A stretch of 64,000 bases of DNA from an uncultured Planctomycetia bacterium (GCA_964373715.1 CAYJVR010000004.1:89255-153254); one strand, 5' to 3'. Shown: positions 1-41,525, counted from the first letter of the stretch. Numbers and translations are program-made. The notes: generated by a model not told the origin, from the sequence alone.

Positions 1-269
1 GCATTGACAACCTCCCCCTGGTCCGGTACCGCTTTAAAGAAGAACAGGAAGAGCATCCTCAGCGGCTCGGGCTCATCGCCGAGTGGTCCCCCCAAGAAAT
101 CAAGCCTCTTGACGGCAAACAGATTGACGTCGGTTCTTACGTCACCTACTCGCTCGCCGGCATCAAATCGCTCTCCAATCAGGTCAAAAAACAGCAAGAG
201 CTTATCGAAAATCAACAAAGAGATCTCCAGGAACTGAAAAAAGAGCTTACCCGGCTTAAAACGAAATGA
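1..269 (+). CDS. 3' end of a secreted fibre-like protein carrying a C-terminal intramolecular chaperone (peptidase S74) domain; the start lies outside the window
   Basis: Frame 3 is open from nt 3 to TGA at 267-269 with no in-window start, so it is absent from the ORF track. It translates to ...IDNLPLVRYRFKEEQEEHPQRLGLIAEWSPQEIKPLDGKQIDVGSYVTYSLAGIKSL...QQELIENQQRDLQELKKELTRLKTK. This shares the RLGILxEEAP...VDxxxxxAxLIxAVKxQQxEIxxLxxEL pattern with the C-termini of ORFs 7622..9373, 9370..11133, 11130..12914 and 1271..2935. Confidence 0.6.
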   Translation, partial: IDNLPLVRYRFKEEQEEHPQRLGLIAEWSPQEIKPLDGKQIDVGSYVTYSLAGIKSLSNQVKKQQELIENQQRDLQELKKELTRLKTK

Positions 270-784
270 TCCGTCCGAGCCTTAAAGAAAATTTGATCCT
301 CCTCACGGCTGCGCTCTTTCTCTGCTTCCCCGCAACCGCTGCCGCAAAAGAAATCGATATTAAAGTGGAGGAGTCGCCGGCGAACGCGCTCGACATACAA
401 AAACAGGCGGGAAAAACCCTTGAAGAAATCCAGCGTAAAAACAAGGAGATGCAAAACAGAGAGATGGAGCGGCTGCAGCAGGATTATCCGGCCATTTATG
501 AATCGAGGAAAGTTGCCGACGCCAGACGCAATAAAATAAGCGCGATTGTCGCCGCCTTCCATCAGAATAAGACCTCCGCGCAGGAGGCGGAACAGAAGCT
601 GACCCCCCTAATGAGGGAAGAACTCAGCGAGCAAATCAGCCAGATGGGCCTAAAAATCTCGGCCTTGGAAAAACATCTGGCTTTTCTGAAAAAGGCCAAA
701 CAAGACCCCCATTTGTTGGTTGAAAAGAAGATCGATGAGCTCCTGGGGCTTACCCTGCCGACTCCTGAAGGGGGGACCTTTTAA
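266..784 (+). CDS. small secreted coiled-coil protein (hypothetical); start ATGA-overlaps the stop of the upstream S74-domain gene
   Basis: N-terminal signal-peptide-like hydrophobic stretch (LILLTAALFLCFPATAAA); the rest is charged, heptad-like, low-complexity sequence. Paralogous to the next ORF: the conserved C-terminal block KAKQDPHLLVEKKIDELLGLTLPTPEGG matches QARKNPNFFVKSKVDELLGKSLPNPED. Confidence 0.5.
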   Translation: MIRPSLKENLILLTAALFLCFPATAAAKEIDIKVEESPANALDIQKQAGKTLEEIQRKNKEMQNREMERLQQDYPAIYESRKVADARRNKISAIVAAFHQNKTSAQEAEQKLTPLMREELSEQISQMGLKISALEKHLAFLKKAKQDPHLLVEKKIDELLGLTLPTPEGGTF

Positions 785-785
785 G

Positions 786-1274
786 GTGGGCAAGCTATTG
801 CGGACTTATCTGCTTTTTGCAGTTCTTCTCATCTCTGTCCCTGCCGGCTTGAGCCTGGCGGCGGATGAACTCCCGACCCCGGAAAAAATACGGGACGATC
901 AGCAAAGAATGCGGCTTGAAATAGAAAAAGCTCGGTGGAAAGAACTGGAGGAGTTAAAGAAAACCTCCCCCGACGCTTATAAGGAGCAGAAAGCGGCCCT
1001 GACCAGGCAAGTGCAGATCAGCGATATCATCAACTCCTTTCATCAAATGACGATCTCCCAGCAAGAGGCGCGGCGAGCCTTGGCGCCGTTGGTCCAGCAG
1101 GAGATTAAGAATAATGTTCAGCTGTTGGACAAAAAGATTGAGATCTTACAGAAGAAGCTGGTTTTCTTGAAACAGGCGAGAAAAAATCCCAATTTTTTCG
1201 TCAAGAGCAAAGTGGATGAACTGTTGGGGAAATCGCTTCCAAATCCAGAGGATATGCTTCCGGATTTTTTTTAA
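786..1274 (+). CDS. small secreted coiled-coil protein, paralog of 266..784; a GTG start at 786 is preferred over the TTG at 720
   Basis: GTG at 786-788 lies 2 nt after the stop of the previous ORF and is preceded by the SD-like AAGGGGGGAC. From that start the N-terminus VGKLLRTYLLFAVLLISVPAGLSLAAD is a signal peptide. The 720 TTG start would overlap the previous gene by 65 nt. Confidence 0.5.
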   Translation: MGKLLRTYLLFAVLLISVPAGLSLAADELPTPEKIRDDQQRMRLEIEKARWKELEELKKTSPDAYKEQKAALTRQVQISDIINSFHQMTISQQEARRALAPLVQQEIKNNVQLLDKKIEILQKKLVFLKQARKNPNFFVKSKVDELLGKSLPNPEDMLPDFF

Positions 1275-2935
1275 GGGAGATTTTCCTTCTTCTCGAGAAC
1301 CTCGATCCGTTTCTTCAGAGACGTATTTTCGGCTTTGAGTTCTTTGACCGCCTGTAAAAGAACAGCGGTAAATTTCCCGTAATCCAGCCCTTTATACCCG
1401 TCGCTCGTATAAACAAGTTCCGGGAAAACCTTTTCGACATCCTGAGCAATCACGCCAATCTCTTTTCTTTCCGGCAATACAGGGTATCCTTTTGCCTTGT
1501 AGAGATCATTCCAATCGTAAGAAACACCCTCAATGGCGTCTATTTTCTGCAGAACACCGGTTAAAGGCTCAATGTGGCTCTTTAAACGAACATCCGACGG
1601 CGTAATAGTTCCCGACGCAAGGATGTTGCCTATGACATGCAGCTTCTCTGTCGGGCTGTCTGTCCCAAGCCCGACAAACTCGCCCGGTGTAATCGTGAAA
1701 GGAAATGACCAGCTGACACCGTTGTTGTAGGCAATCTGGAACTTATTCACAACGCCGGCCGCTTGTTTATGCGAAATCTGCCAGAACTTGTCGGTCGCCT
1801 CATCCGACACAAGGTTAAGGGCGGAAAAATTGTCCCCGTCCCCGGTCCCCCAAATGGATTGATATGCCGCGTCACCGTTTCGGTAGACCGTCAAAGCGGA
1901 GCCAGGATTCAAAAGCCCGATACCGACGTTTCCGTTACCCGCAATAGCCAATCGAACCGTCTGAAGGGTCGGCACAACGTCTCCGGTTCCACTCACGCTG
2001 CCGATGCCGGTATACATAAAGATGCCGGAGGCCCCAGTGCCTGTCGAAATACCGGAGGAGAGGACCAGGTTTCCCCCGTCCCTGTTCGTCGCCGCCACGG
2101 TGGTCCCGCCGGCCCTGACCGTCAGGTTGTTGCCTCCGGTGTTCGGGGCGGTATGCCGCTCCATCTGTATCATCCGGGTGTTATTACCGTTGATTCCAAT
2201 CGTAGCGGTGGCGTTGTATGCCCCTATCGCCAGCATGGGGACATCCAAAGAAATATTGGTTGAGTCTTGAAGGACAAACACCGGCTGCCATCCGCCGCCG
2301 GCGTTAAAATCGCGGTAGAGCACATGGAAATTATGCGATGCCGTCGCGCTCCTGTTATGGCCGATCTGCCAAATCTGGTCGTCCGCCTCAGATCCGACAA
2401 CTCCGAAATCGGCGTCGAGATTGATGGCGCAGTAGTTATCCGGATCCCCCACTCCGGTAGACCGGAGCCGCATGTAGAGGGCGTCATAAGGGCGCACGAT
2501 ATCCACGCCGGACAAAGGGGTGGCTGTCCCTATGCCGAAGTTCAAAGCCGGTCCCCCGGGTCCAGGAACATCGTTGCCCGGCATAAAGACCACCTGGCCT
2601 ATCCCATCATCCGGTCCGCGGACACGCAGGAGGTCTTCCGGCGTCCCAGGGGCGGTCAAAATGGAGCGGATGTCCAACAAACCGGCCGGAGTGCGGGTAC
2701 CCATCCCCACGCGCCCCTCCACGGCTAAACCGTTAGCCGGAACAGGCTGAGAATTGTAGCCGGCGCCGATGCCGGCGCTGTTGACGTAAAGAGGGTCCGG
2801 AAGGTCATTGCCGGTAGCCGGATAATAGGTAACGAACTCGAGGGTTTCAGCCCAGACAAGCCCGGCCATCAAACCGACTAAAAGGAACAGCGCAATTCCG
2901 TGTGTCCGCCATGTTTTGATGATCATTTGTGTCAC
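1271..2935 (-). CDS. secreted Gly-rich fibre-like protein with C-terminal intramolecular chaperone (peptidase S74, tail-fibre/endosialidase chaperone) domain
   Basis: Signal peptide (IALFLLVGLMAGLVWA). N-terminal motif FVTYYPATGNDLPDPLYV is shared with the three tandem paralogs. Central region has repetitive G-x-G-T motifs (GIGTATP, GMGTRTP, GLGTDSP). C-terminus PSDVRLKSHIEPLTGVLQKIDAIEGVSYDWND...GVIAQDVEKVFPELVYTSDGYKGLDYGKFTAVLLQAVKELKAENTSLKKRIEVLE matches the S74 signature SDxRLKxNI...Y.Y..-...IGFIAQEV...P. Its stop overlaps the stop of 786..1274 in a convergent TTAA. Confidence 0.7.
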   Translation of the reverse strand: MTQMIIKTWRTHGIALFLLVGLMAGLVWAETLEFVTYYPATGNDLPDPLYVNSAGIGAGYNSQPVPANGLAVEGRVGMGTRTPAGLLDIRSILTAPGTPEDLLRVRGPDDGIGQVVFMPGNDVPGPGGPALNFGIGTATPLSGVDIVRPYDALYMRLRSTGVGDPDNYCAINLDADFGVVGSEADDQIWQIGHNRSATASHNFHVLYRDFNAGGGWQPVFVLQDSTNISLDVPMLAIGAYNATATIGINGNNTRMIQMERHTAPNTGGNNLTVRAGGTTVAATNRDGGNLVLSSGISTGTGASGIFMYTGIGSVSGTGDVVPTLQTVRLAIAGNGNVGIGLLNPGSALTVYRNGDAAYQSIWGTGDGDNFSALNLVSDEATDKFWQISHKQAAGVVNKFQIAYNNGVSWSFPFTITPGEFVGLGTDSPTEKLHVIGNILASGTITPSDVRLKSHIEPLTGVLQKIDAIEGVSYDWNDLYKAKGYPVLPERKEIGVIAQDVEKVFPELVYTSDGYKGLDYGKFTAVLLQAVKELKAENTSLKKRIEVLEKKENLP

Positions 2936-3055
2936 AAAATCTCTCTTAATAATAGGTTACCATTAAATAGAACTCTTTTCTTCCGGTGTAAACTTGGCCT
3001 TTAATAAAAGTATACAATAAGTTCGACTCCTTTTTCCAGTCAAAATTGTTCTATT
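2936..3055 (-). promoter_or_regulatory. AT-rich intergenic region, putative promoter for the 1271..2935 fibre gene
   Basis: A 120-nt AT-rich island in a GC-rich genome, immediately upstream of the start at 2935 and downstream of the end of sucD. It contains AAAAGTATAC, which also occurs upstream of the pilin operon at ~14676. Confidence 0.3.
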
Positions 3056-7621: not shown

Positions 7622-9373
7622 TTACTTCCTCAGCTCTTCCAGTTCCGACCGGAGAGCGTTTATCTCCACCTGCTGCGCCTTCACGGCGGCCAAGAGGGCG
7701 GCCAAAGAATCGCCCTGCACAATTCCCTGCCCGGAGTCGTCCACCATCTCAGCAGGCGCTTCTTCGGTGAGGATCCCCAGCCTGTGCGCTTTCGCGTGAT
7801 CTCCGCTCTTTAAACGAAAATGGTAAAGAGAAACCGACAAGAGCTTCTCCAGAATGGCCTGCTCTTCCGGGAGGGTCAACGGAACCAGATCTGTTTTTAC
7901 CTGGACCGTCGAGTTATCGAACGTCGCTCCGACTCCCTCAGCCCGTGCGTCTCCGTTGATTTTGACGACCTCCGCGGCTCCAATCGCAGCCGTCACCCCA
8001 AAAAACGCCCCGTCCTGATAAAAAGCCCCCTGGATAGGCGACGCGGCACTCCTGTTGCTCGACCTAATATTTACCGTGAGGGTAGACGGATAAGGATTGC
8101 CCGCGGCGTCCCGGACCGCCGAGTACCCGAAACCAACCCGCCCCCCCTCGAGTTCAATGTAAGCAGGAACACCTCCCTCTGAAGAGGTACCTGCTCTTCC
8201 CAAGCGCAGTATGGGACCGGTCGTAAACATCTGATAAACTGGGTTCGCGGCAGGAGAGGAGTTGACGGTGACCGTCGTCCCGTAAAAAGACGGCGGTCCG
8301 GTTGCGCTATCCACAAGATGCATCATCGCCCTTGGGGCGATTGTCTTCACACCCACGGTTCCGTTAAATATAGCGTTGGCCGCTGCGACCCTCAAGCGGG
8401 CGTTGGTGGTAGTCGTGGTGTTAATTGCCGCGTACCCATCGTTCCGCATCCGGAACCGGACGGTGGCAGGCGTTCCGCCGCCGGTGGTATCCATCATAAC
8501 CTGGAATTCGCCGGCTGCCAAAACAGCATTCCCCTCATTGAGCAGGTTAAACGGCCGGCCGCCTGCTGAGGGGGTAAACCGGATCACCCCTCCGGTGAGG
8601 AAGCCAACGCCGCCATTCTCAGACGGGCCCACATCCAGCTGGGCCAGAGGGTCCGCGAAACCACCGTTAGCGGCTCCTTCAAAAAATATTCCCACGCTTC
8701 CATTGTTCAGAACCCGTATCTTTTCACCCGCTGTACCCGTGCCACCGGGGGGAATACGGGTGCTCAACTGTAATTTTCCGGAACTGTTCTCCAGCGTGAA
8801 GCGAGTATGGTCCGGGTTCGCTCCGTTGAGGGCGCCGGCCCAAAAAACATTGCCCCCCGCATTGAGTCCATCCTTGGGGCCGATCTCCAGAGGAGCCAGC
8901 GGATCCCTGACGCCGGTATCCTCCGAAAAAATCCCCACGCGGCCGGTGTTTAAAACCCGCATCCGTTCGCTCGACCCAGCCGCGGTCTGCACGATAAGGC
9001 GCAGCTGCATCGTATTGTTCTCGAAATAGCGCCACCGGTTGGCCCCTGCCCCGAGTAAACGCACCGCACCGCCCAAGTTGACCGCGTCCCGCGGACCGGC
9101 ATCCAGCGGCACGGCCGGAGCGGCCACATTGACCCCCACCGACCCCGCGACGATCGCGGAATCGGCGGGAGGATCAATCGCCGCGTACGGAGCACCGACG
9201 GTCAAACGCCTGACATGGAACGGATCCGGGATGTTCCCGTTGGTCGGGTAATACTCGATCATATCCACTTGGGTCTGCTCGGCCCACGCGGCCGGACAAA
9301 TCAGGCTGAGCAAGGCCCCCAGGGTAAAAAGGAAACGTCCTCCTTTTCTTCCGTACGAGAACTTTTTCATCAC
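7622..9373 (-). CDS. secreted fibre-like protein with C-terminal S74 intramolecular chaperone domain (tandem paralog 3 of 3)
   Basis: Signal peptide LFTLGALLSLICPAAWA. N-terminal motif MIEYYPTNGNIPDPFHVRRLTVG is conserved in all paralogs. The central region is Gly-rich and repetitive. C-terminus VKTDLVPLTLPEEQAILEKLLSVSLYHFRLKSGDHAKAHRLGILTEEAPAEMVDDSGQGIVQGDSLAALLAAVKAQQVEINALRSELEELRK is an S74-like chaperone domain. The start overlaps the upstream gene by 4 nt. Confidence 0.75.
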   Translation of the reverse strand: MMKKFSYGRKGGRFLFTLGALLSLICPAAWAEQTQVDMIEYYPTNGNIPDPFHVRRLTVGAPYAAIDPPADSAIVAGSVGVNVAAPAVPLDAGPRDAVNLGGAVRLLGAGANRWRYFENNTMQLRLIVQTAAGSSERMRVLNTGRVGIFSEDTGVRDPLAPLEIGPKDGLNAGGNVFWAGALNGANPDHTRFTLENSSGKLQLSTRIPPGGTGTAGEKIRVLNNGSVGIFFEGAANGGFADPLAQLDVGPSENGGVGFLTGGVIRFTPSAGGRPFNLLNEGNAVLAAGEFQVMMDTTGGGTPATVRFRMRNDGYAAINTTTTTNARLRVAAANAIFNGTVGVKTIAPRAMMHLVDSATGPPSFYGTTVTVNSSPAANPVYQMFTTGPILRLGRAGTSSEGGVPAYIELEGGRVGFGYSAVRDAAGNPYPSTLTVNIRSSNRSAASPIQGAFYQDGAFFGVTAAIGAAEVVKINGDARAEGVGATFDNSTVQVKTDLVPLTLPEEQAILEKLLSVSLYHFRLKSGDHAKAHRLGILTEEAPAEMVDDSGQGIVQGDSLAALLAAVKAQQVEINALRSELEELRK

Positions 9374-11133
9374 GGGTCTAAACCCCCAAGAGTTCCGTGA
9401 GCGGCGGATTGAGCGGTTTTCTCTTTCCTTATCCGCCCGATCCTGGCCCTTAAAGATTCGATCTCTTCTTGCTGGGCCTTGACCACCGCGATCAGAGCGG
9501 CCATATATTCCGGCAGGTCCAGCGCCTCATGGTGGTCGTCCACAATATCGTCCATGGCCTCCTCGACCAGTATCCCCACGCGATGCGATTTAGACGTTTC
9601 GACAGCCTCTTTCCTCTGGTAATTGTACAGGGGCACATCCATCAGCTGAGAGGCAAGCCCCCTCTCCTCCAGTGAAGTCAGACGGGCCAAATCTGTTTTA
9701 TAGGCGACCGAACTGCCCCATGTCCAGCCGCCGGTCGCCAGAGCGTCCCCGAAAACCTTCAAAGCATAACCGGCCGTGTAGGTGAACCCGCCGATCAAGC
9801 ACCGGTCGGTATGGGCCTGCCCTATCACCGTGAACATGTTGTTCCCGATAGGCATTCCCCTGATCCCAGTCTGTCCGTCGGCCCCGGATGGCGGCACTGT
9901 TATATTCCCCAGTCCACCCCTGCAGACAATACGCAGCTTCAAGACGTTTGCTGTTGGTGGGCCTACGGCGTCATACTCCCCGATGACCAGATCCTTATCG
10001 CTCACGGCTGAAGTCTGGTAATATAACCCGTAAGCAACAGTGGTGGTAGCGGGTTCGACTATAAGACCTCCGCCCGAGGGGGCCAAGGAGGAAGCCAGGA
10101 TACGGACGCCCGGCATCGTATCGGTCGTCGGAATACCGTTCAGCTTGAGATCCCCCTCTATAACGGTATTTCCATCGACCCGCAGCCCCCCCGCGGGAGG
10201 TGTTGGTAGCGGACTGCCGATCCCAAAACCTCCGGCATTCGTGAGCACCACTTTAGCGCTTGAAGAGCCGGCGCCGTCGTCCGTCCAAAACTGCAAATCA
10301 TTGCCCACACTGCGGATTTGCGCGTAGCGGGGATTCGCCGTGGTTCCGGCCAAATGAATCCTGGCCCCGGTTGCCGCAGATTCCGCGCCGATGTGCAGGA
10401 CTTCGGTGGGATTGACCACACCGGTACCATTGACGAAAATCCCGACACTGCCCGCCAACACACCCGCCCCGTCATCGACAACCGTCCGCAAAACCTCCCT
10501 GTCCGGATTGACGCCGTCCTGCATCATGAGCCTGAACCGGCCGGCATTGTTCTCCAGATGGAAATACCCGTTCGTGTCGGCCCCGACAAACATCAGCTGG
10601 CCGCCCAGGTCGGTGGGATCCCTGGGCCCGAGGTGAAGCGGCTCCTGCGGATCAAGCGCAAGACCGTCGGAGTGGGGATAAATCCCGAGAAAACCGGTTT
10701 CCATTATCCGCATTCTTTCCGTAGCGACCGCCGCTCCGGTATCATCGGTGTTGGTGAAGAACCGTATTCTTCCCGTGTCGTTTTCCAGATAGAACCAGCG
10801 GTTGGCCCCCGCTCCGAGCAGGCGCAGAGCGCCGCCCGAGTTGACCGCGTCCCGGGGCCCGATGTCCACAGAGATAATAGGAGCGGCTATAGACGGGTTA
10901 TTTGTTCTCACTCCCAGCGGGCCGGCGATGATAAGGGAATCGGCCGGCGGGGTGGTGGCCAGATAAGGGGTCCCGACTGTTTGACTCTGGACGCGGAACG
11001 GGTCCGGCAGGCTTCCTGACGGCGGATAGTAGGTTGTCACCTCCATCGTTTCGACGGCCCAGACCAGGGTGGCTGTGACCAGCACTCCCGCGAGAGTTCC
11101 AAAAACAGGAGTCTGCCAGAATTTATTGTTCAT
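9370..11133 (-). CDS. secreted fibre-like protein with C-terminal S74 intramolecular chaperone domain (tandem paralog 2 of 3)
   Basis: Signal peptide TLAGVLVTATLVWA. N-terminal motif TTYYPPSGSLPDPFRVQSQTVG. C-terminus YKTDLARLTSLEERGLASQLMDVPLYNYQRKEAVETSKSHRVGILVEEAMDDIVDDHHEALDLPEYMAALIAVVKAQQEEIESLRARI. A 4-nt overlap on both sides indicates translational coupling. Confidence 0.75.
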   Translation of the reverse strand: MNNKFWQTPVFGTLAGVLVTATLVWAVETMEVTTYYPPSGSLPDPFRVQSQTVGTPYLATTPPADSLIIAGPLGVRTNNPSIAAPIISVDIGPRDAVNSGGALRLLGAGANRWFYLENDTGRIRFFTNTDDTGAAVATERMRIMETGFLGIYPHSDGLALDPQEPLHLGPRDPTDLGGQLMFVGADTNGYFHLENNAGRFRLMMQDGVNPDREVLRTVVDDGAGVLAGSVGIFVNGTGVVNPTEVLHIGAESAATGARIHLAGTTANPRYAQIRSVGNDLQFWTDDGAGSSSAKVVLTNAGGFGIGSPLPTPPAGGLRVDGNTVIEGDLKLNGIPTTDTMPGVRILASSLAPSGGGLIVEPATTTVAYGLYYQTSAVSDKDLVIGEYDAVGPPTANVLKLRIVCRGGLGNITVPPSGADGQTGIRGMPIGNNMFTVIGQAHTDRCLIGGFTYTAGYALKVFGDALATGGWTWGSSVAYKTDLARLTSLEERGLASQLMDVPLYNYQRKEAVETSKSHRVGILVEEAMDDIVDDHHEALDLPEYMAALIAVVKAQQEEIESLRARIGRIRKEKTAQSAAHGTLGGLDP

Positions 11134-12914
11134 GGCCGCCCCTGTGCCCGCTCTTTCTCCAGATGATCAAGCTCCGACTTCAAAGACTCGATCTGAGCCT
11201 TCTGCGCTTTGAGCGCGGCCAACAACACGGACATGTAATCACTGCCGGCGATCGCACGCCCGCTGTCATCCACAATCTCTTTCGGCGCCTCTTCCGCCAG
11301 GATCCCGATGTGCCGGATTTTCGAATCGCCCGCCCCATTTTTCAAACGGTAGCGGTAAAGGACCTGTCCCGCCAATTTGTCCAGCAAATTTTTTTCATCG
11401 GTTGGACTCAGCCGGACCAGATCGGTCTTCCCGATCACAGAACTGCCTTCCGATTTGTTGCCGCTGGAATAAACCGCCCCCTGCACATGCATTTTATAAG
11501 GGAATACCAAAACCCCGCCCGCGCCGAACACCGCGGTATCTCCAAACATGGCGGCGTCGTTGCCGGCTAATCCGACGTCAAAAGGATAGGCCGGCGTCGT
11601 TATGTTGACGCCGACATACGCAGTCCCACCGACAGGATGGATCACAATGCGGCTGGCGGCATTGCCGCTGAGGGCCGGAGACTCGTCCCCGATCCGAAAA
11701 TCGGTGACCCCGCCGCCGACATCCACCGCCTGAAAAGCATAGGGCACCTTGGTCGCCGGCGGATTAATCGGGCCCTCCATTAAAAGGCCGGTAGTTCCTT
11801 TTATATGGAGTCCCGGGCTCGCAGCCGGGGCGCTTAACCCGATTACCATTTTTCCGGTACCCGCGACACCGACTTGAAGATTTCCGCCGGCCACATGAAG
11901 TTTCGTGCTCGCGCTTGGAACAGGAGCGGGGTTCCCGAAAGAGACATTTCCGGTGTTGGTGATCCGCATTTTCACGCTTTCAATTCCAACGCCATCCTGG
12001 GTCACAACCTGCAGTGTCTGGGCGTTGTTTTCGAAATAGAGGTACCTGTTTGTTCCGGCGCCTCTTAAAAGAAACTGTCCCCCGAGGTTCGTGGCATCGC
12101 GGGGCCCCAAGTGCAGAGCGGCCAGAGGATCCGTCACCCCGGTGTTGTTGTAGAAGATCCCCATTTGCCCCGTGGGTAAAATCCGGATTGCCTCATTCGC
12201 GCCGTTTTGCATCCTCAAACGGAATTGCGACGATTGATTCTCGATCAAAAAATAGGGGTGGTCCGGGTTGGCTCCGTTGACCGCGCCGGCCCAGAGGACC
12301 TCCGCGCCGTCGTTCGCGTTATCCACAGGGCCGACCTCCAGCATAGAGGTCGCGGCGGGGTCCACAACTTTATTCGTGCTCGGATAGATGCTCATTCTCC
12401 CCGTCTGGAGAATACGGACCCTATCCTCCGGGGCACCGACAGCGTTTTCAGACCAGATCCGGAACGCCCCGGTATTATTTTCAAACTCCCAAAACCGGTT
12501 GGCTCCCGCCCCCCGCAAGCGGATCAGGCCGCCTAGATTTCCAGCCGGGTTTCGGGCCACTTCAAGAGGAAACGTCGGGTTTGGCTCCCGGATCCCCAAC
12601 CGGCCGGCGATGATTAAAGAGTCGGCGGGGGTGGTGTTATTGGTCAGATAAAGGGTGGCCCCTTGATCAGCCCCCACCGTCATCCGGCGGACATGGAAGG
12701 GGTCCGTTGCCGTTACCGGCGGGAATGCGTAATACTCGACCATATCCACCTGCTCCGCCCAGGAGACCGTGGCCAGCATGCCGCCGGCGATCAGTACTCC
12801 GAATACTCCGGATCTTTTCTTCAGCATTTCGCGCACCCATCCGTGATTTGGCCTTAAGCTCTTTCTTTCGGCTTTTCCATACTGCTCAAAAAGCGGCCAA
12901 AAGAAACCGTTCAT
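11130..12914 (-). CDS. secreted fibre-like protein with C-terminal S74 intramolecular chaperone domain (tandem paralog 1 of 3); the true start may be the internal Met at ~12824
   Basis: MLKKRSGVFGVLIAGGMLATVSWA is a signal peptide if translation starts ~30 codons in. N-terminal motif MVEYYAFPPVTATDPFHVRRMTVG. C-terminus GKTDLVRLSPTDEKNLLDKLAGQVLYRYRLKNGAGDSKIRHIGILAEEAPKEIVDDSGRAIAGSDYMSVLLAALKAQKAQIESLKSELDHLEKE. Confidence 0.7.
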   Translation of the reverse strand: MNGFFWPLFEQYGKAERKSLRPNHGWVREMLKKRSGVFGVLIAGGMLATVSWAEQVDMVEYYAFPPVTATDPFHVRRMTVGADQGATLYLTNNTTPADSLIIAGRLGIREPNPTFPLEVARNPAGNLGGLIRLRGAGANRFWEFENNTGAFRIWSENAVGAPEDRVRILQTGRMSIYPSTNKVVDPAATSMLEVGPVDNANDGAEVLWAGAVNGANPDHPYFLIENQSSQFRLRMQNGANEAIRILPTGQMGIFYNNTGVTDPLAALHLGPRDATNLGGQFLLRGAGTNRYLYFENNAQTLQVVTQDGVGIESVKMRITNTGNVSFGNPAPVPSASTKLHVAGGNLQVGVAGTGKMVIGLSAPAASPGLHIKGTTGLLMEGPINPPATKVPYAFQAVDVGGGVTDFRIGDESPALSGNAASRIVIHPVGGTAYVGVNITTPAYPFDVGLAGNDAAMFGDTAVFGAGGVLVFPYKMHVQGAVYSSGNKSEGSSVIGKTDLVRLSPTDEKNLLDKLAGQVLYRYRLKNGAGDSKIRHIGILAEEAPKEIVDDSGRAIAGSDYMSVLLAALKAQKAQIESLKSELDHLEKERAQGRP

Positions 12915-12929
12915 TTCAGATCACCCCGG

Positions 12930-13442
12930 TTACTGGGTTGGCACTGTCCATTTGATCCTCATCCGGACTCGCCGCAAGTCGGTTACGTTATCCCCGTTAA
13001 AATCTCTGCCGATCAAACCATCCCCGTCAAAATCCTCATCTGCAATTCCATTGGCGTTTTCATCCGCTCTTTCCACATAAAGGTAAACCCCTTCTCCTGC
13101 TGCCGTCTGGAAACGCTGCAGTTCTGTCGGAAAATTCAGCCAGGTCGCTTTCACTGGGGCTACAGCCGGCACTGACGATGAGTTGGGCGGACTCGTCATA
13201 ATGTTGTCCACGTAATAGCCCGGCGCAAGCGTCGTCCCGTCGCCTAAAGCGGCCGCCACAGCCAACCGGAGCTTCTCCGTGACCCGCTGGATATGGCCCT
13301 GGACCATAATCTCCGTTTCCGACCGCCAGCTCACTTTCCGGCTGAAAGCAAAAGCGGTAAATATCCCGCTGGTGACAAGGGCGAATATCAGCATCGCCAG
13401 CATAATCTCCAAGAGGGTGACCCCCATTCGTCCGCTTTTCAT
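12930..13442 (-). CDS. prepilin-type N-terminal cleavage/methylation domain pseudopilin (GspH/I/J-like minor pilin)
   Basis: Start trimmed to the ATG at 13440-13442, with a GGAGAT SD 8 nt upstream. N-terminus MKSGRMGVTLLEIMLAMLIFALVTSGIF has the class III signal G|VTLLE with Glu at +5 followed by a hydrophobic helix. The ORF-track N-terminal extension overlaps the upstream gene. Confidence 0.6.
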   Translation of the reverse strand: MKSGRMGVTLLEIMLAMLIFALVTSGIFTAFAFSRKVSWRSETEIMVQGHIQRVTEKLRLAVAAALGDGTTLAPGYYVDNIMTSPPNSSSVPAVAPVKATWLNFPTELQRFQTAAGEGVYLYVERADENANGIADEDFDGDGLIGRDFNGDNVTDLRRVRMRIKWTVPTQ

Positions 13443-13446
13443 CCTA

Positions 13447-13977
13447 TTAATCTCCATAATCCGAAAAAACGCGCACCCGGAACTCCGGCTGCCCCACGCC
13501 GTTGATGCCCGATTGAGCTGTGACATCCACCTCGCGGCCGACGCGGCTGGGGAGGAGAGCCCCCATAAAAATATCATTCGTCCGAAAATCCGGCGCCCCG
13601 CCGCCCGCGGCGGCACACACGTTGCCGGAGACTCTCGACGTAATCACGTAAGCCCTGGGAGACCCGTGCGATCCCGCGTGAGTCTGCGCATGCCGGATCG
13701 CATTGGCAAACCCGGCCGGCGGTCGGGTAGCCAAAGCTTCAAGGTTAAACACCGCGTCAGTATACGTCGTATCCAGTTCGATCCGGTTGAAAACGTACCG
13801 GACCCCCGCCTCGCAAGCCGCCTGCGCCGCGGCATGATCCGCTTGAAGGAACGCCGCGTTAAAGCTGTTGAAGGAGAGGTTCATTACCGCCATCACGATA
13901 AAAAGAACCATCAGAGACGCCGCCACCGCAACAACCAGCGCAACCCCTTTTTCCGATGAACGGTCTCTTTTCAACAT
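13447..13977 (-). CDS. pseudopilin-like protein lacking Glu+5 (GspK/PilX-like minor pilin candidate)
   Basis: Start trimmed to the ATG at 13975-13977, which overlaps the stop of the upstream pilin by 1 nt. MLKRDRSSEKGVALVVAVAASLMVLFIVMAVMNLSFNSFNAAF has a prepilin-like hydrophobic N-terminal helix without E5, as in GspK. The 88-codon upstream extension in the ORF track lies wholly within the neighbouring gene. Confidence 0.5.
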   Translation of the reverse strand: MLKRDRSSEKGVALVVAVAASLMVLFIVMAVMNLSFNSFNAAFLQADHAAAQAACEAGVRYVFNRIELDTTYTDAVFNLEALATRPPAGFANAIRHAQTHAGSHGSPRAYVITSRVSGNVCAAAGGGAPDFRTNDIFMGALLPSRVGREVDVTAQSGINGVGQPEFRVRVFSDYGD

Positions 13978-14591
13978 CAGTTCGTCACCATCCCCCGCGG
14001 GCTGACCGTGCTGACCACCGTGCTTGTCCGCGTCTGCGTTCCGACCGTCTTTGTGACGGTCATCGAGATATCCAGCTGGGCCGGAGAAACGAGCGTGAAT
14101 GTGAAGCTGGCTACATTCCGGGCAATGATTTCCCCGCCGAAACCGGGATCCCCCGGATCCGCGACGGAAGCGCCCGGCACAAAATCCCGCCTGTAATACA
14201 AGATCTGGGCGCCGGAATCGTATCCGTAGTAATCCCACCAATCGTCCGTGGGGTCTAACGGGGTAGCCGTGCCGCCCGAAATGCTTCTATGGTCATAGCG
14301 GACCGCTATCTTGGAAGAAACATTTCCGACAGCCCCGTATTGGATGAGCCTATTCCCTAAGCCGACGAACTTCTTCAGGTGGGCGTGACCGTAAGAAGCC
14401 TCTCCTTGGGTTGTCGCCATGCCGACAGTCTGCATCAAGAAATTATGGGAGGTTCCGGTCACCATGACCATCCCCAGCCCAACAACCCCGATGAGGACCG
14501 CCGCCAACATGACCTCAACCAGCGTCATCCCTTTTCGTGAGAATAGCATCGGTTCTGCATAACCTCTCTTCAGGCAAGGGTCGGCTTTCAA
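13977..14591 (-). CDS. prepilin-type N-terminal cleavage/methylation domain pseudopilin (first gene of the pilin-fibre operon)
   Basis: MLFSRKGMTLVEVMLAAVLIGVVGLGMVMV has a canonical G|MTLVE prepilin peptidase site with E5, followed by a ~20-aa hydrophobic helix. Confidence 0.65.
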   Translation of the reverse strand: MKADPCLKRGYAEPMLFSRKGMTLVEVMLAAVLIGVVGLGMVMVTGTSHNFLMQTVGMATTQGEASYGHAHLKKFVGLGNRLIQYGAVGNVSSKIAVRYDHRSISGGTATPLDPTDDWWDYYGYDSGAQILYYRRDFVPGASVADPGDPGFGGEIIARNVASFTFTLVSPAQLDISMTVTKTVGTQTRTSTVVSTVSPRGMVTN

Positions 14592-33953: not shown

Positions 33954-34029
33954 TGGAGCGGGTGAAGGGACTTGAACCCTCGACAGCCTCGTTGGCAACG
34001 AGGCGCTCTACCAACTGAGCTACACCCGC
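33954..34029 (-). tRNA. tRNA-Gly (anticodon GCC), CCA encoded
   Basis: Reverse complement GCGGGTGTAGCTCAGTTGGTAGAGCGCCTCGTTGCCAACGAGGCTGTCGAGGGTTCAAGTCCCTTCACCCGCTCCA. Cloverleaf checked by hand; anticodon loop TTGCCAA. Confidence 0.85.
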
Positions 34030-34080
34030 AACAAACTCCTCAAAATCTAAAACAGCACTCTTGGATCTACAACCGGCTCT

Positions 34081-34162
34081 TGGGCACGGAGGGAGTTGAA
34101 CCCCCACCCCTTTCGGGACAGGATCCTAAATCCTGCGCGTCTTCCAGTTCCGCCACGTGCCC
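34081..34162 (-). tRNA. tRNA-Leu (anticodon TAG), long variable arm
   Basis: Reverse complement GGGCACGTGGCGGAACTGGAAGACGCGCAGGATTTAGGATCCTGTCCCGAAAGGGGTGGGGGTTCAACTCCCTCCGTGCCCA. Anticodon stem CAGGA/TCCTG, loop TTTAGGA, discriminator A. Confidence 0.8.
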
Positions 34163-34202
34163 GAAAAAGGAAGCCCATTCAAAATCCGGCTCTGAATTTT
34201 TA

Positions 34203-34275
34203 TGGGCCGTGTAGGAATCGAACCTACAACCTTGACATTAAGAGTGTCCTGCTCTGCCGATTGAGCTAACGGCCC
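34203..34275 (-). tRNA. tRNA-Lys (anticodon CTT)
   Basis: Reverse complement GGGCCGTTAGCTCAATCGGCAGAGCAGGACACTCTTAATGTCAAGGTTGTAGGTTCGATTCCTACACGGCCCA. Anticodon loop CTCTTAA; one mismatch at the top of the anticodon stem. Confidence 0.7.
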
Positions 34276-34410
34276 GAAACCTTCAAGGAATTTGGCCTAG
34301 GCCGGCCAAAAGACTATTTTAGCCTACAGACAGACCCATATAAACGGTTTTAAGGCCCTGTCCCCGTACCTCCTGAACTCGACTTCACAGCAGGCATAAC
34401 CGTGAAAAAA

Positions 34411-34484
34411 CGCGCCCGCCGAGAGTCGAACTCGGAACCTCCAGGTTCGAAGCCTGTCACTCTATCCAGTTGAGCTACGGGCGC
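34411..34484 (-). tRNA. tRNA-Arg (anticodon TCG)
   Basis: Reverse complement GCGCCCGTAGCTCAACTGGATAGAGTGACAGGCTTCGAACCTGGAGGTTCCGAGTTCGACTCTCGGCGGGCGCG. Anticodon loop CTTCGAA. Confidence 0.8.
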
Positions 34485-34560
34485 AAAAAGACACTCTCGA
34501 CGAAGGTAGGCTCTCCAAGATAACAGATCGCTGGGGGGAAATCAAACCGAAGAAACGGTT

Positions 34561-41225: not shown

Positions 41226-41525
41226 TGGTCGCGGGGCCTGGATTTGAACCAGGGACCTTCAGGTTATGCGTACCACTTCAGCTTTCGCTGCTTCATGCTC
41301 CAGCATGAATTTGTGGTCTGGACTATCCCATCACCCCGTACCTAGTGGTACGGGGTGCCCGCCGTCTAGTCTCTACACCTTCCTTGCGCTCAAAACCACA
41401 AGGCTTGGTTCGGGATCACCAGTAAAGGCTTCCCCGACTTTGACGGGTTTTAACTCAACCGTTGCCGGCTGAGTGGCCCAGATTTTATTTGAGCCTGACG
41501 AGCTACCAGACTGCTCCACCCCGCA
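41226..41525 (-). tRNA. tRNA-Met/Ile2 (anticodon CAT) interrupted by a group I intron; exons ~41492..41525 and 41226..41268
   Basis: 5' exon (rc) TGCGGGGTGGAGCAGTCTGGTAGCTCGTCAGGCT carries the acceptor, D-arm and 5' anticodon stem. 3' exon CATAACCTGAAGGTCCCTGGTTCAAATCCAGGCCCCGCGACCA carries the anticodon, 3' anticodon stem CCTGA, T-arm and acceptor. Joined, the anticodon loop is CTCATAA. The anticodon stem is TCAGG/CCTGA, so it is not an initiator tRNA. Confidence 0.7.
41269..41491 (-). ncRNA. group I self-splicing intron (Azoarcus-like, IC3-type) in the anticodon loop of tRNA(CAT)
   Basis: The intron RNA contains GGAAGGUGUAGAGACUAGACGGCGGGCACC (R element / P7 5' strand, near-identical to the Azoarcus ribozyme GAAGGUGUAGAGACUAGACGGCACCCACC) and GGGAUAGUCCAGACC (S element / P7 3' strand). 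The 5' exon ends in U, a GGCC internal guide sequence 11 nt into the intron pairs with exon GGCU, and the terminal intron nucleotide is G. Confidence 0.7.

Follow-up and report, generated by a model that had tools for sequence, protein, structure and literature searches.

Known fibre systems and the locus compared with them

The mosaic adhesive trimer (MAT) fibres of Bdellovibrio bacteriovorus are the only characterised bacterial relatives of the proteins considered here. This bacterium has 21 MAT fibres, 13 with S74 ends and 8 with other tips (Caulton et al. 2024; PMC10769870). A MAT fibre comprises a signal peptide, a conserved β-rich N-domain of ~130 amino acids (aa) and a trimeric mosaic shaft; the fibres occur on the predator surface, and one of them binds prey glycans (PMC10769870). 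Its authors state explicitly that they do not know which surface element the N-domain binds, or what holds or assembles the N-terminus, and mention a possible interplay with type IV pili (PMC10769870). A partner gene or operon for MATs is mentioned in neither the main text nor the supplementary text searched, and Supplementary Table S3 includes a 713-aa Omnitrophica S74-like protein among the MATs (PMC10769870). Omnitrophota are uncultured, mostly ultra-small bacteria that have been proposed to be predators or parasites (PMC10066038); fibres, S74 or tail-fibre-like genes go without mention in two Omnitrophota genome surveys that argue for such lifestyles. The present analysis concerns a 64,000-nucleotide (nt) stretch of DNA from an uncultured Planctomycetia bacterium (GCA_964373715.1 CAYJVR010000004.1:89255-153254; hereafter the window), in which four fibre genes (F1 to F4) and the end of a fifth (F5) accompany two small genes, A and B. 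The favoured reading, with a probability of roughly 0.6, is that the fibres are Sec-exported surface proteins on the MAT plan, vertically inherited, and that the small family is a dedicated, translationally coupled partner of F5-type fibres. The fibres belong to a type already described. New are the small family, with its consistent linkage to fibre genes, and the pseudopilin neighbourhood, the former a concrete and cheap candidate for a fibre assembly or anchoring partner, the latter a hint as to where the route of fibre export or display might be sought.

The window fibres resemble MATs in their signal-like N-terminus, conserved N-module, mosaic build and S74 or unrelated end, and, like MATs, are present in several paralogous copies in the genome of a bacterium that is, or is proposed to be, predatory or host-dependent. 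Unlike MATs (~1,000 aa), they are only 524-594 aa long, their catalytic motif is degenerate in four of five cases, and the F5-type fibre always lies beside a gene for a small helical protein, with pseudopilin genes flanking the cluster. Phage S74 fibres (K1F endosialidase, the T5 L-shaped fibre and phi29 gp12) and MyRF are similar in their S74 domain, with the SDxxxK motif seen in F1, and in a preceding VGxxT..P...L motif and β-helical repeats. In contrast to the phage fibres, the window genes are chromosomal, and putative export signals and a bacterial N-module replace the virion-attachment domain. Proteins named 'tail fiber domain-containing protein' at NCBI, from Bacteroidota and other phyla, also possess an S74 C-terminus and GIGT..P repeats, many with signal peptides, but the TYYP N-module that characterizes the window fibres occurs in only 9 of the 120 best matches.

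Small helpers are known for several trimeric fibres and secreted clients, among them T4 gp57A, a small coiled-coil fibre chaperone, SadB, which serves the trimeric autotransporter SadA, and Lif, a lipase-specific foldase encoded downstream of lipA. All three are small, largely helical and encoded beside their client, and SadB and Lif act in the periplasm; such helpers illustrate how the small family might operate. The window small proteins, in contrast, have no detectable homology to any of them. Moreover, gp57A is cytoplasmic and SadB a lipoprotein, whereas the window small proteins are of secreted type without a lipobox; B also contains no cysteine, and a lipoprotein reading of these proteins was rejected.

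The small gene beside fibre genes

The surroundings of the small gene were readable in 13 independent lineages, and in all 13 a secreted fibre-like gene is adjacent to it, bearing out the expectation of the sequence-only reading that the small genes are kept next to fibre genes. In 12 lineages the small gene lies immediately downstream of the fibre-like gene, with an overlap or a gap of at most 48 nt. Stop and start overlap by 4 nt in five of these: in the window (also L001-5) and in L006/7, both with the order F5, A, B and an ATGA overlap; in L099/100, where the fibre P0007 precedes the small gene with a GTGA overlap; in L101/102, behind a 535-aa F5-type fibre; and in the P0135 contig (L103), behind a 551-aa S74 fibre. 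The overlap is 14 nt in L013, where the small gene is enclosed by fibres of 682 and 548 aa, and an overlap with a preceding TYYP fibre also occurs in L011. Short gaps separate fibre and small gene in L017/18 (17 nt), L015/16 (27 nt) and L008/9 (34 nt), while in L014 the small gene follows two TYYP proteins after 48 nt, and in L010 it stands 23 nt behind a fibre-like gene and 10 nt ahead of a TYYP fibre. The remaining lineage, L012, has a TYYP fibre 260 nt downstream of the small gene, and its contig stops 340 nt upstream. Neither the small family nor the N-module was found in 80 unrelated gltA loci (1.4 Mb, including three Omnitrophota genomes). In two loci (L008:1447-2028 and L017:2162-2734), a gene for a CvpA (Colicin_V family) membrane protein follows the small gene, either by chance or as a possible member of one envelope locus.

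The partner fibres have the TYYP N-module in common and, in most lineages where the upstream partner is readable, Gly/aromatic repeats of the 'GVYG' type, as judged by eye. Their ends differ: S74 in the window, L015-L018, L099, L101 and L103, and unrelated in L008, L010, L011, L013 and L014. Because the partner C-termini vary and the N-module is conserved, the part by which a small protein could recognise its fibre is the N-terminus or the repeats, not the tip or the S74 domain. The partner is one class of fibre, the F5 type with TYYP N-module and 'GVYG' repeats, and the broader proposal that the small proteins serve all five fibres is not upheld.

The identity of the fibre next to gene A in the window was settled by public contigs. 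Small protein A is present exactly in five of them, one of which (L002) is 100% identical to positions 1-1300 of the window and continues upstream; the open reading frame (ORF) cut off at the window's edge was correctly taken to be a fifth fibre gene, and extends into a complete fibre of secreted type (524 aa; L002:1732-3306). F5 consists of a hydrophobic, signal-like N-terminus, the segment WADTSEFVTYYP, GIGT..P repeats, Gly/Tyr-rich repeats and a divergent S74-like C-terminus (SSLDRKK). F5 and A had been called co-translated; the ATGA in which the stop of one overlaps the start of the other is real, and the proper term is translationally coupled. By the same token of 4-nt stop/start overlaps, at 11130-11133 (F4/F3) and 9370-9373 (F3/F2) on the minus strand, the tandem genes F4, F3 and F2 look translationally coupled as well.

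The small protein family

A and B are paralogs, as had been supposed (36% identity, E 8e-28). They also look secreted, with hydrophobic, signal-like N-termini according to hydrophobicity and an AxA heuristic; that of A ends AAA|KE, and that of B is retained with all three of its candidate starts, the choice between which is ambiguous (GTG 786, or ATG 735 and TTG 798 in public gene calls, giving 179 and 158 aa, respectively). A strongly hydrophobic N-terminal segment is found in 131 of 141 full-length family members. B is nearer to the family consensus than A and better conserved (85% against 73% identity to the respective orthologs in L006). The small gene appears to have been duplicated in the window lineage, with B the conservative and A the faster-evolving copy.

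A search with A alone by indexed words yielded only 4 relatives, and an exhaustive profile search was needed to reveal the family: it retrieved 245 cluster representatives with a threshold of E<=1e-3, of which 184 remained at E<=1e-10 and 32 at E<=1e-30. Their length is 140-200 aa in almost every case. The family is rare, most clusters being metagenome singletons. The 61-member alignment was too diverse for pattern scanning, and a 12-member alignment was used instead; it located only 2 loci in JGI metagenomes and none in 185,579 representative genomes. Conservation is highest in two places, a stretch reading (I/L)S..EAE..L.PL and a helix at the C-terminus, ..DP.LLVKKRIDELLG...P.P. In 69 of the 141 members, an aromatic residue occupies one of the last three positions, following a Pro-rich P.P(E/D) tail; this aromatic end may be a docking motif.

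The description of the small proteins as coiled-coil is based on a predicted structure and on weak sequence matches. An AlphaFold model (mean predicted local distance difference test (pLDDT) score 78) contains three long helices and one short one, and a profile search against PDB sequences, which otherwise returned coiled-coil noise, gave the third helix a weak likeness to designed coiled-coil peptides. A Foldseek search of the PDB with the model returned nothing at E<=0.001, and solved structures gave no significant match to the family by sequence or fold. Pfam, NCBIfam and PHROGs gave nothing above threshold for the small proteins, with one spurious PHROG match (1.4e-3), and no match was found in viral contigs or phage genomes. 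Searched singly against Pfam, 61 members produced sub-threshold, scattered matches, chiefly to FUT8_N_cat (11 of 61) and Lipase_chap (10 of 61, best 3.3e-5). Membership of the Spy/CpxP (LTXXQ) or Skp (OmpH) families was rejected, these being absent among the Pfam matches of the 61 members at E<=0.1, as is membership of Lif (Pfam PF03280), with B scoring 17.4 bits against a cut-off of 25.7 and no Lif chain among the PDB matches.

These comparisons bear on an alternative in which the small proteins have no specific tie to fibres and serve more generally in the periplasm, as stress chaperones or as structural coiled-coil proteins of the Spy/CpxP, Skp or Lif kind. Their small size, apparent secretion and all-helical character are those of Spy, CpxP and Skp, and the weak Lipase_chap matches lean the same way. 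Against it, a general chaperone would be widespread, yet the family is rare and was not found by pattern scan in representative genomes; it shows no LTXXQ, Metal_resist or OmpH match, every Pfam match is sub-threshold, and the PDB offers no significant counterpart. The adjacency to fibres in every lineage, frequently with 4-nt overlaps, is also hard to reconcile with a general function, which is considered improbable. An assembly factor, chaperone or anchor for fibres, as proposed in the sequence-only reading, is by contrast a reasonable role, because the small proteins look secreted and their genes adjoin those of fibres in every one of the 13 lineages; chaperone and anchor are not told apart by the evidence.

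Architecture and S74 ends of the fibres

F1 contains a canonical S74 domain, matching Pfam Peptidase_S74 (PF13884) at 2e-17 and 63.6 bits (cut-off 22). Codons 1580-1597 encode SDVRLK, a canonical SDxxxK motif with Ser447 and Lys452. The protein starts with a signal-like N-terminus ending VWA|E, followed by the TYYP N-module, and also comprises four GxGT..P...L motifs, two repeated β-rich modules, and the S74 domain with a C-terminal helix behind it. It could be aligned to the solved intramolecular chaperone domain of MyRF (E 1.7e-8), including the VGxxT..P...L motif. In all five fibres, a heuristic identified a hydrophobic 10-mer (Kyte-Doolittle >=2.15) ahead of a WA|E or WA|D site, and all five have a common N-module of the form ...WA[ED]-x-x-E-x-V-T-Y-Y-P.... 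An AlphaFold model of the N-module was too poor for use (mean pLDDT 57).

The ends of the other four fibres are divergent. F1 alone passes the Pfam S74 cut-off of 22; F4 reaches 21.4 bits, F5 21.0 bits (E 4.3e-4) and a C-terminal fragment of F2 16.7 bits, and full-length F2 and F3 have no Pfam S74 match. F2, F3 and F4 end in a block that is shared with F1 and F5 and in these three contains the motif S[TS]xxxK. An alignment of the C-terminal fragments of F2, F3, F4, F5 and the F5 ortholog from L006 was used to probe this relationship: S74 was the top Pfam family for all five fragments (best E 1.4e-5), the resulting profile retrieved canonical S74 fibres at 9e-11, 7e-9 and 3.8e-6, and its best matches in the PDB, though weak, were phi29 gp12 and MyRF. 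The motif reads STVQVK in F2, SSVAYK in F3, SSVIGK in F4 and SSLDRK in F5, so that Ser and Lys stand five residues apart in all five fibres and the Asp of the motif occurs in F1 only. To count all five fibre genes as S74 genes, as was done earlier, is fair in terms of homology, because S74 is the top family for the aligned fragments and their profile finds canonical S74 proteins; it needs the qualification that four of the five fall below the Pfam cut-off and have lost the Asp.

F1 matches 34 PHROG tail-fibre families (best 1.6e-33) and 917 records among 50,697 phage genomes, and a small chaperone gene is often found directly downstream of phage fibre genes; the locus could on these grounds be a prophage remnant, with leftover tail fibres and tail-fibre assembly chaperones. 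Yet the phage likeness of F1 is restricted to residues ~312-550, the C-terminal ~40%, with no record covering its N-terminal 300 residues, and all five fibres possess export-signal-like N-termini and a non-phage N-module. Scanning of the window ORFs revealed no capsid, terminase, tail or integrase genes, nor other phage genes, and the neighbours are housekeeping genes. The small family, further, has no phage, viral or meaningful PHROG match, and the locus is syntenic across diverged genomes. A prophage origin is accordingly very improbable, the least probable of the explanations weighed.

It is also unlikely, if somewhat less so, that the fibres are not adhesins at all, instead forming envelope or sheath components or acting as enzymes such as depolymerases, with S74 serving for folding only. 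S74 is indeed also found on endosialidases and other tailspike enzymes, and the central modules contain no identifiable binding domain. However, no catalytic domain was detected, and the mosaic middles and tips, together with a cassette swap in F5, fit a role in recognition; binding of prey glycans is also what is known of the MAT fibres, their nearest characterised counterparts (PMC10769870).

Age and diversification of the fibre set

The fibres had been ascribed to a rapid expansion of paralogs, which the data do not support: the paralogs are old (23-43% identity), and the locus is syntenic in an Omnitrophota genome. F2, F3 and F4 are 34-43% identical to one another over their full length, and F1 resembles the other fibres in ~90 N-terminal residues (28-38% identity) and, weakly, in the C-terminus. 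In Candidatus Omnitrophota GCA_023818545.1, a fibre of the F2-4 type and two PMT genes are followed by gltA, mdh, sucC, sucD and further fibres; downstream of sucD lie an F1 ortholog (49% identity), the F5-type fibre P0007, the small gene and an inverted PmbA/TldD pair; a PmbA/TldD pair also lies upstream of F5. Given this synteny and the identity of the F1 ortholog, the fibre set appears old and vertically kept. The PMT-family (dolichyl-phosphate-mannose-type) glycosyltransferase genes, located between the F2-4-type fibre and gltA (L099:1056-3670), hint at glycosylated fibres or envelope in that genome. A similar order occurs in L013, with a glycogen-debranching-enzyme gene, three pseudopilin-like genes, fibre, small gene, fibre, gltA, mdh and sucC, which equals the window order except for an inverted F5-A-B block. 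A gltA probe had at most 61% identity to any representative genome, and its matches were scattered over many phyla, which made it uninformative on taxonomy. The locus is best explained as chromosomal and vertically inherited, and its affiliation, as far as homologs and gene order indicate, is most likely with Omnitrophota.

Diversification, the second part of the same earlier proposal, can be seen in F5 only. Between the window and L006 (GCA_023248015.1), orthologs are 93% identical for F1, 85% for B, 73% for A and 54% for F5. The ends of F5 are 58-90% identical between the two, and residues ~81-320 only 20-40%, with many gaps. A single gene has thus had its cassette swapped, which is different from a burst of duplication. 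The swapped region corresponds approximately to L002:1972-2691 and L006:5460-6270, with an unrelated module in L006. By eye, that central module of L006 resembles a module of the L010 fibre (GGGIGFGG...ERMRITS), a likeness that points to a common pool of shaft cassettes.

Proposed role of the small proteins

In the favoured reading, the fibres would be exported by Sec and would trimerise with the aid of S74, the S74 end then being cut off, at least in F1; once exported, they would serve as surface adhesins for the recognition of host or prey. The small protein would be made in step with the F5-type fibre, exported likewise, and encounter the fibre chains, at a ratio of about 1:1, in the periplasm. 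Its binding site would be the conserved N-terminus or the repeats, and it would either work as a holdase or assembly chaperone or serve as an adaptor that tethers the finished fibre; this part of the fibre is the predicted target because partners differ in their variable tips and S74 ends. Directly established are the gene structures and the paralogy, the size of the small family, its adjacency to fibre genes, the synteny, the S74 homology and the lack of a phage context.

Several points weigh against this reading. Secretion, trimerisation, autocleavage, the fibre-small protein interaction and the adhesin role are inferred, the partner role from gene order, and signal peptides were judged by heuristic instead of by a dedicated predictor. 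The likeness of the window fibres to MATs is one of architecture, as distinct from demonstrated homology between the N-module and the MAT N-domain. None of F1 to F4 has its own small gene, and the small protein, if a general fibre factor, must therefore act in trans. As S74 itself acts as a folding chaperone, it is not evident why another should be required. The weak matches of the small proteins to Lipase_chap, DUF3450 and prefoldin may be compositional, the family being helical and of low complexity. Lastly, the Omnitrophota affiliation is based on best full-length homologs and synteny, not on a marker gene.

Pseudopilin genes beside the fibre cluster

Directly upstream of F4-F3-F2 lie three prepilin-type genes, whose products begin GMTLVEVML, GVALVVAVA and GVTLLEIML. 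One of them (13977..14591) exceeds the N_methyl threshold (21.8 bits against 21.2); another (12930..13616) has weak N_methyl and GspH matches, and the middle gene was recognised by eye and by its counterpart in L013. The trio is downstream of a glycogen-debranching-enzyme gene, and the same three types recur, in permuted order, at L013:1895-3494. This recurrence suggests a link of the fibres to a pilus or pseudopilus.

Such a link could take the form of display by a type IV pilus or a pseudopilus like that of type II secretion, which would present the fibres, the small protein being an adaptor between N-module and minor pilin. Besides the trio in the window and its recurrence before fibre, small gene and fibre in L013, pilin-like genes and one resembling PilM come after the small gene of L015, and the anchor of the MAT N-domain is unknown, with an interplay with type IV pili raised by the MAT authors (PMC10769870). 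However, this context is seen in only three of the 13 lineages, most contigs being too short to judge, and the window small genes lie ~11 kb from the pseudopilins. Nor did the scanned window ORFs include a pilus ATPase, platform or secretin gene, and only the one gene of the trio clears its threshold. Display of this kind is doubtful, though better placed than the general-chaperone, non-adhesin and prophage explanations. A related proposal, held just as tentatively, is that the small family is the missing partner of MAT-type fibres, a dedicated periplasmic adaptor or chaperone that would bind the fibre at its conserved N-terminus or Gly/Tyr repeats and pass it to a pseudopilus-like machine, the flanking minor-pilin trio, for export and surface display on a host-dependent Omnitrophota cell.

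Gene layout and other features of the window

The positions of the locus features are given in Table 1. The ORF coordinates reported earlier, the ATGA at 266-269 and the TTAA at 1271-1274 were all reproduced from the ORF list and the raw sequence. The TTAA does supply the stop codon of both convergent genes, as had been pointed out, but it is not conserved, the stops in the relative L006 being 60 nt apart; a functional meaning of the common TTAA was rejected for this reason. Pfam confirmed the identities of gltA, mdh, sucC and sucD between the fibre loci. The spacer between sucD and F1 may contain a promoter of its own for F1, as far as matches to the consensus can indicate.

Table 1. Features of the fibre locus, in window coordinates.
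Feature	Position	Strand	Description
F5, 3' end	1..269	+	last 88 codons, frame 3..269, TGA 267-269
Small gene A	266..784	+	ATG 266 to TAA 784, 172 aa
Small gene B	786..1274	+	GTG 786 to TAA 1274, 162 aa
Fibre F1	1271..2935	-	554 aa from GTG 2935; 551 aa from ATG 2926
Peptidase_S74 match in F1	1409..1597	-	residues 447-509, Pfam
sucD/F1 spacer	2936..3055	-	AT-rich; two sigma-70-like hexamer pairs, consensus match only
Tandem fibre genes F4, F3, F2	7622..12914	-	F4 probable start 12827
Three prepilin-type genes	12930..14591	-	directly upstream of F4

The remaining window ORFs that were scanned are housekeeping genes, encoding a glycogen-debranching enzyme, enolase, pyruvate:ferredoxin oxidoreductase, S-adenosylmethionine synthetase, S-adenosylhomocysteine hydrolase and phosphoglucose isomerase, as well as a phosphoenolpyruvate-utilising enzyme, a glycoside hydrolase of family 57 (GH57) and a major facilitator superfamily transporter. 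A cluster of four tRNA genes is located at 33954..34485 on the minus strand (Gly(GCC), Leu(TAG), Lys(CTT) and Arg(TCG)). A further tRNA gene, at 41226..41525 on the same strand, is interrupted in its anticodon loop by a group I intron (41298..41501; Rfam RF00028, 58 bits). ARAGORN, run with its intron option, reported a tRNA with a 223-nt intron and labelled it Leu(caa), a label that probably results from its placement of the intron boundaries. The exons (GCGGGGTGGAGCAGTCTGGTAGCTCGTCAGGCTC / ATAACCTGAAGGTCCCTGGTTCAAATCCAGGCCCCGC) look like those of an initiator tRNA-fMet(CAU), judged against the E. coli sequence.

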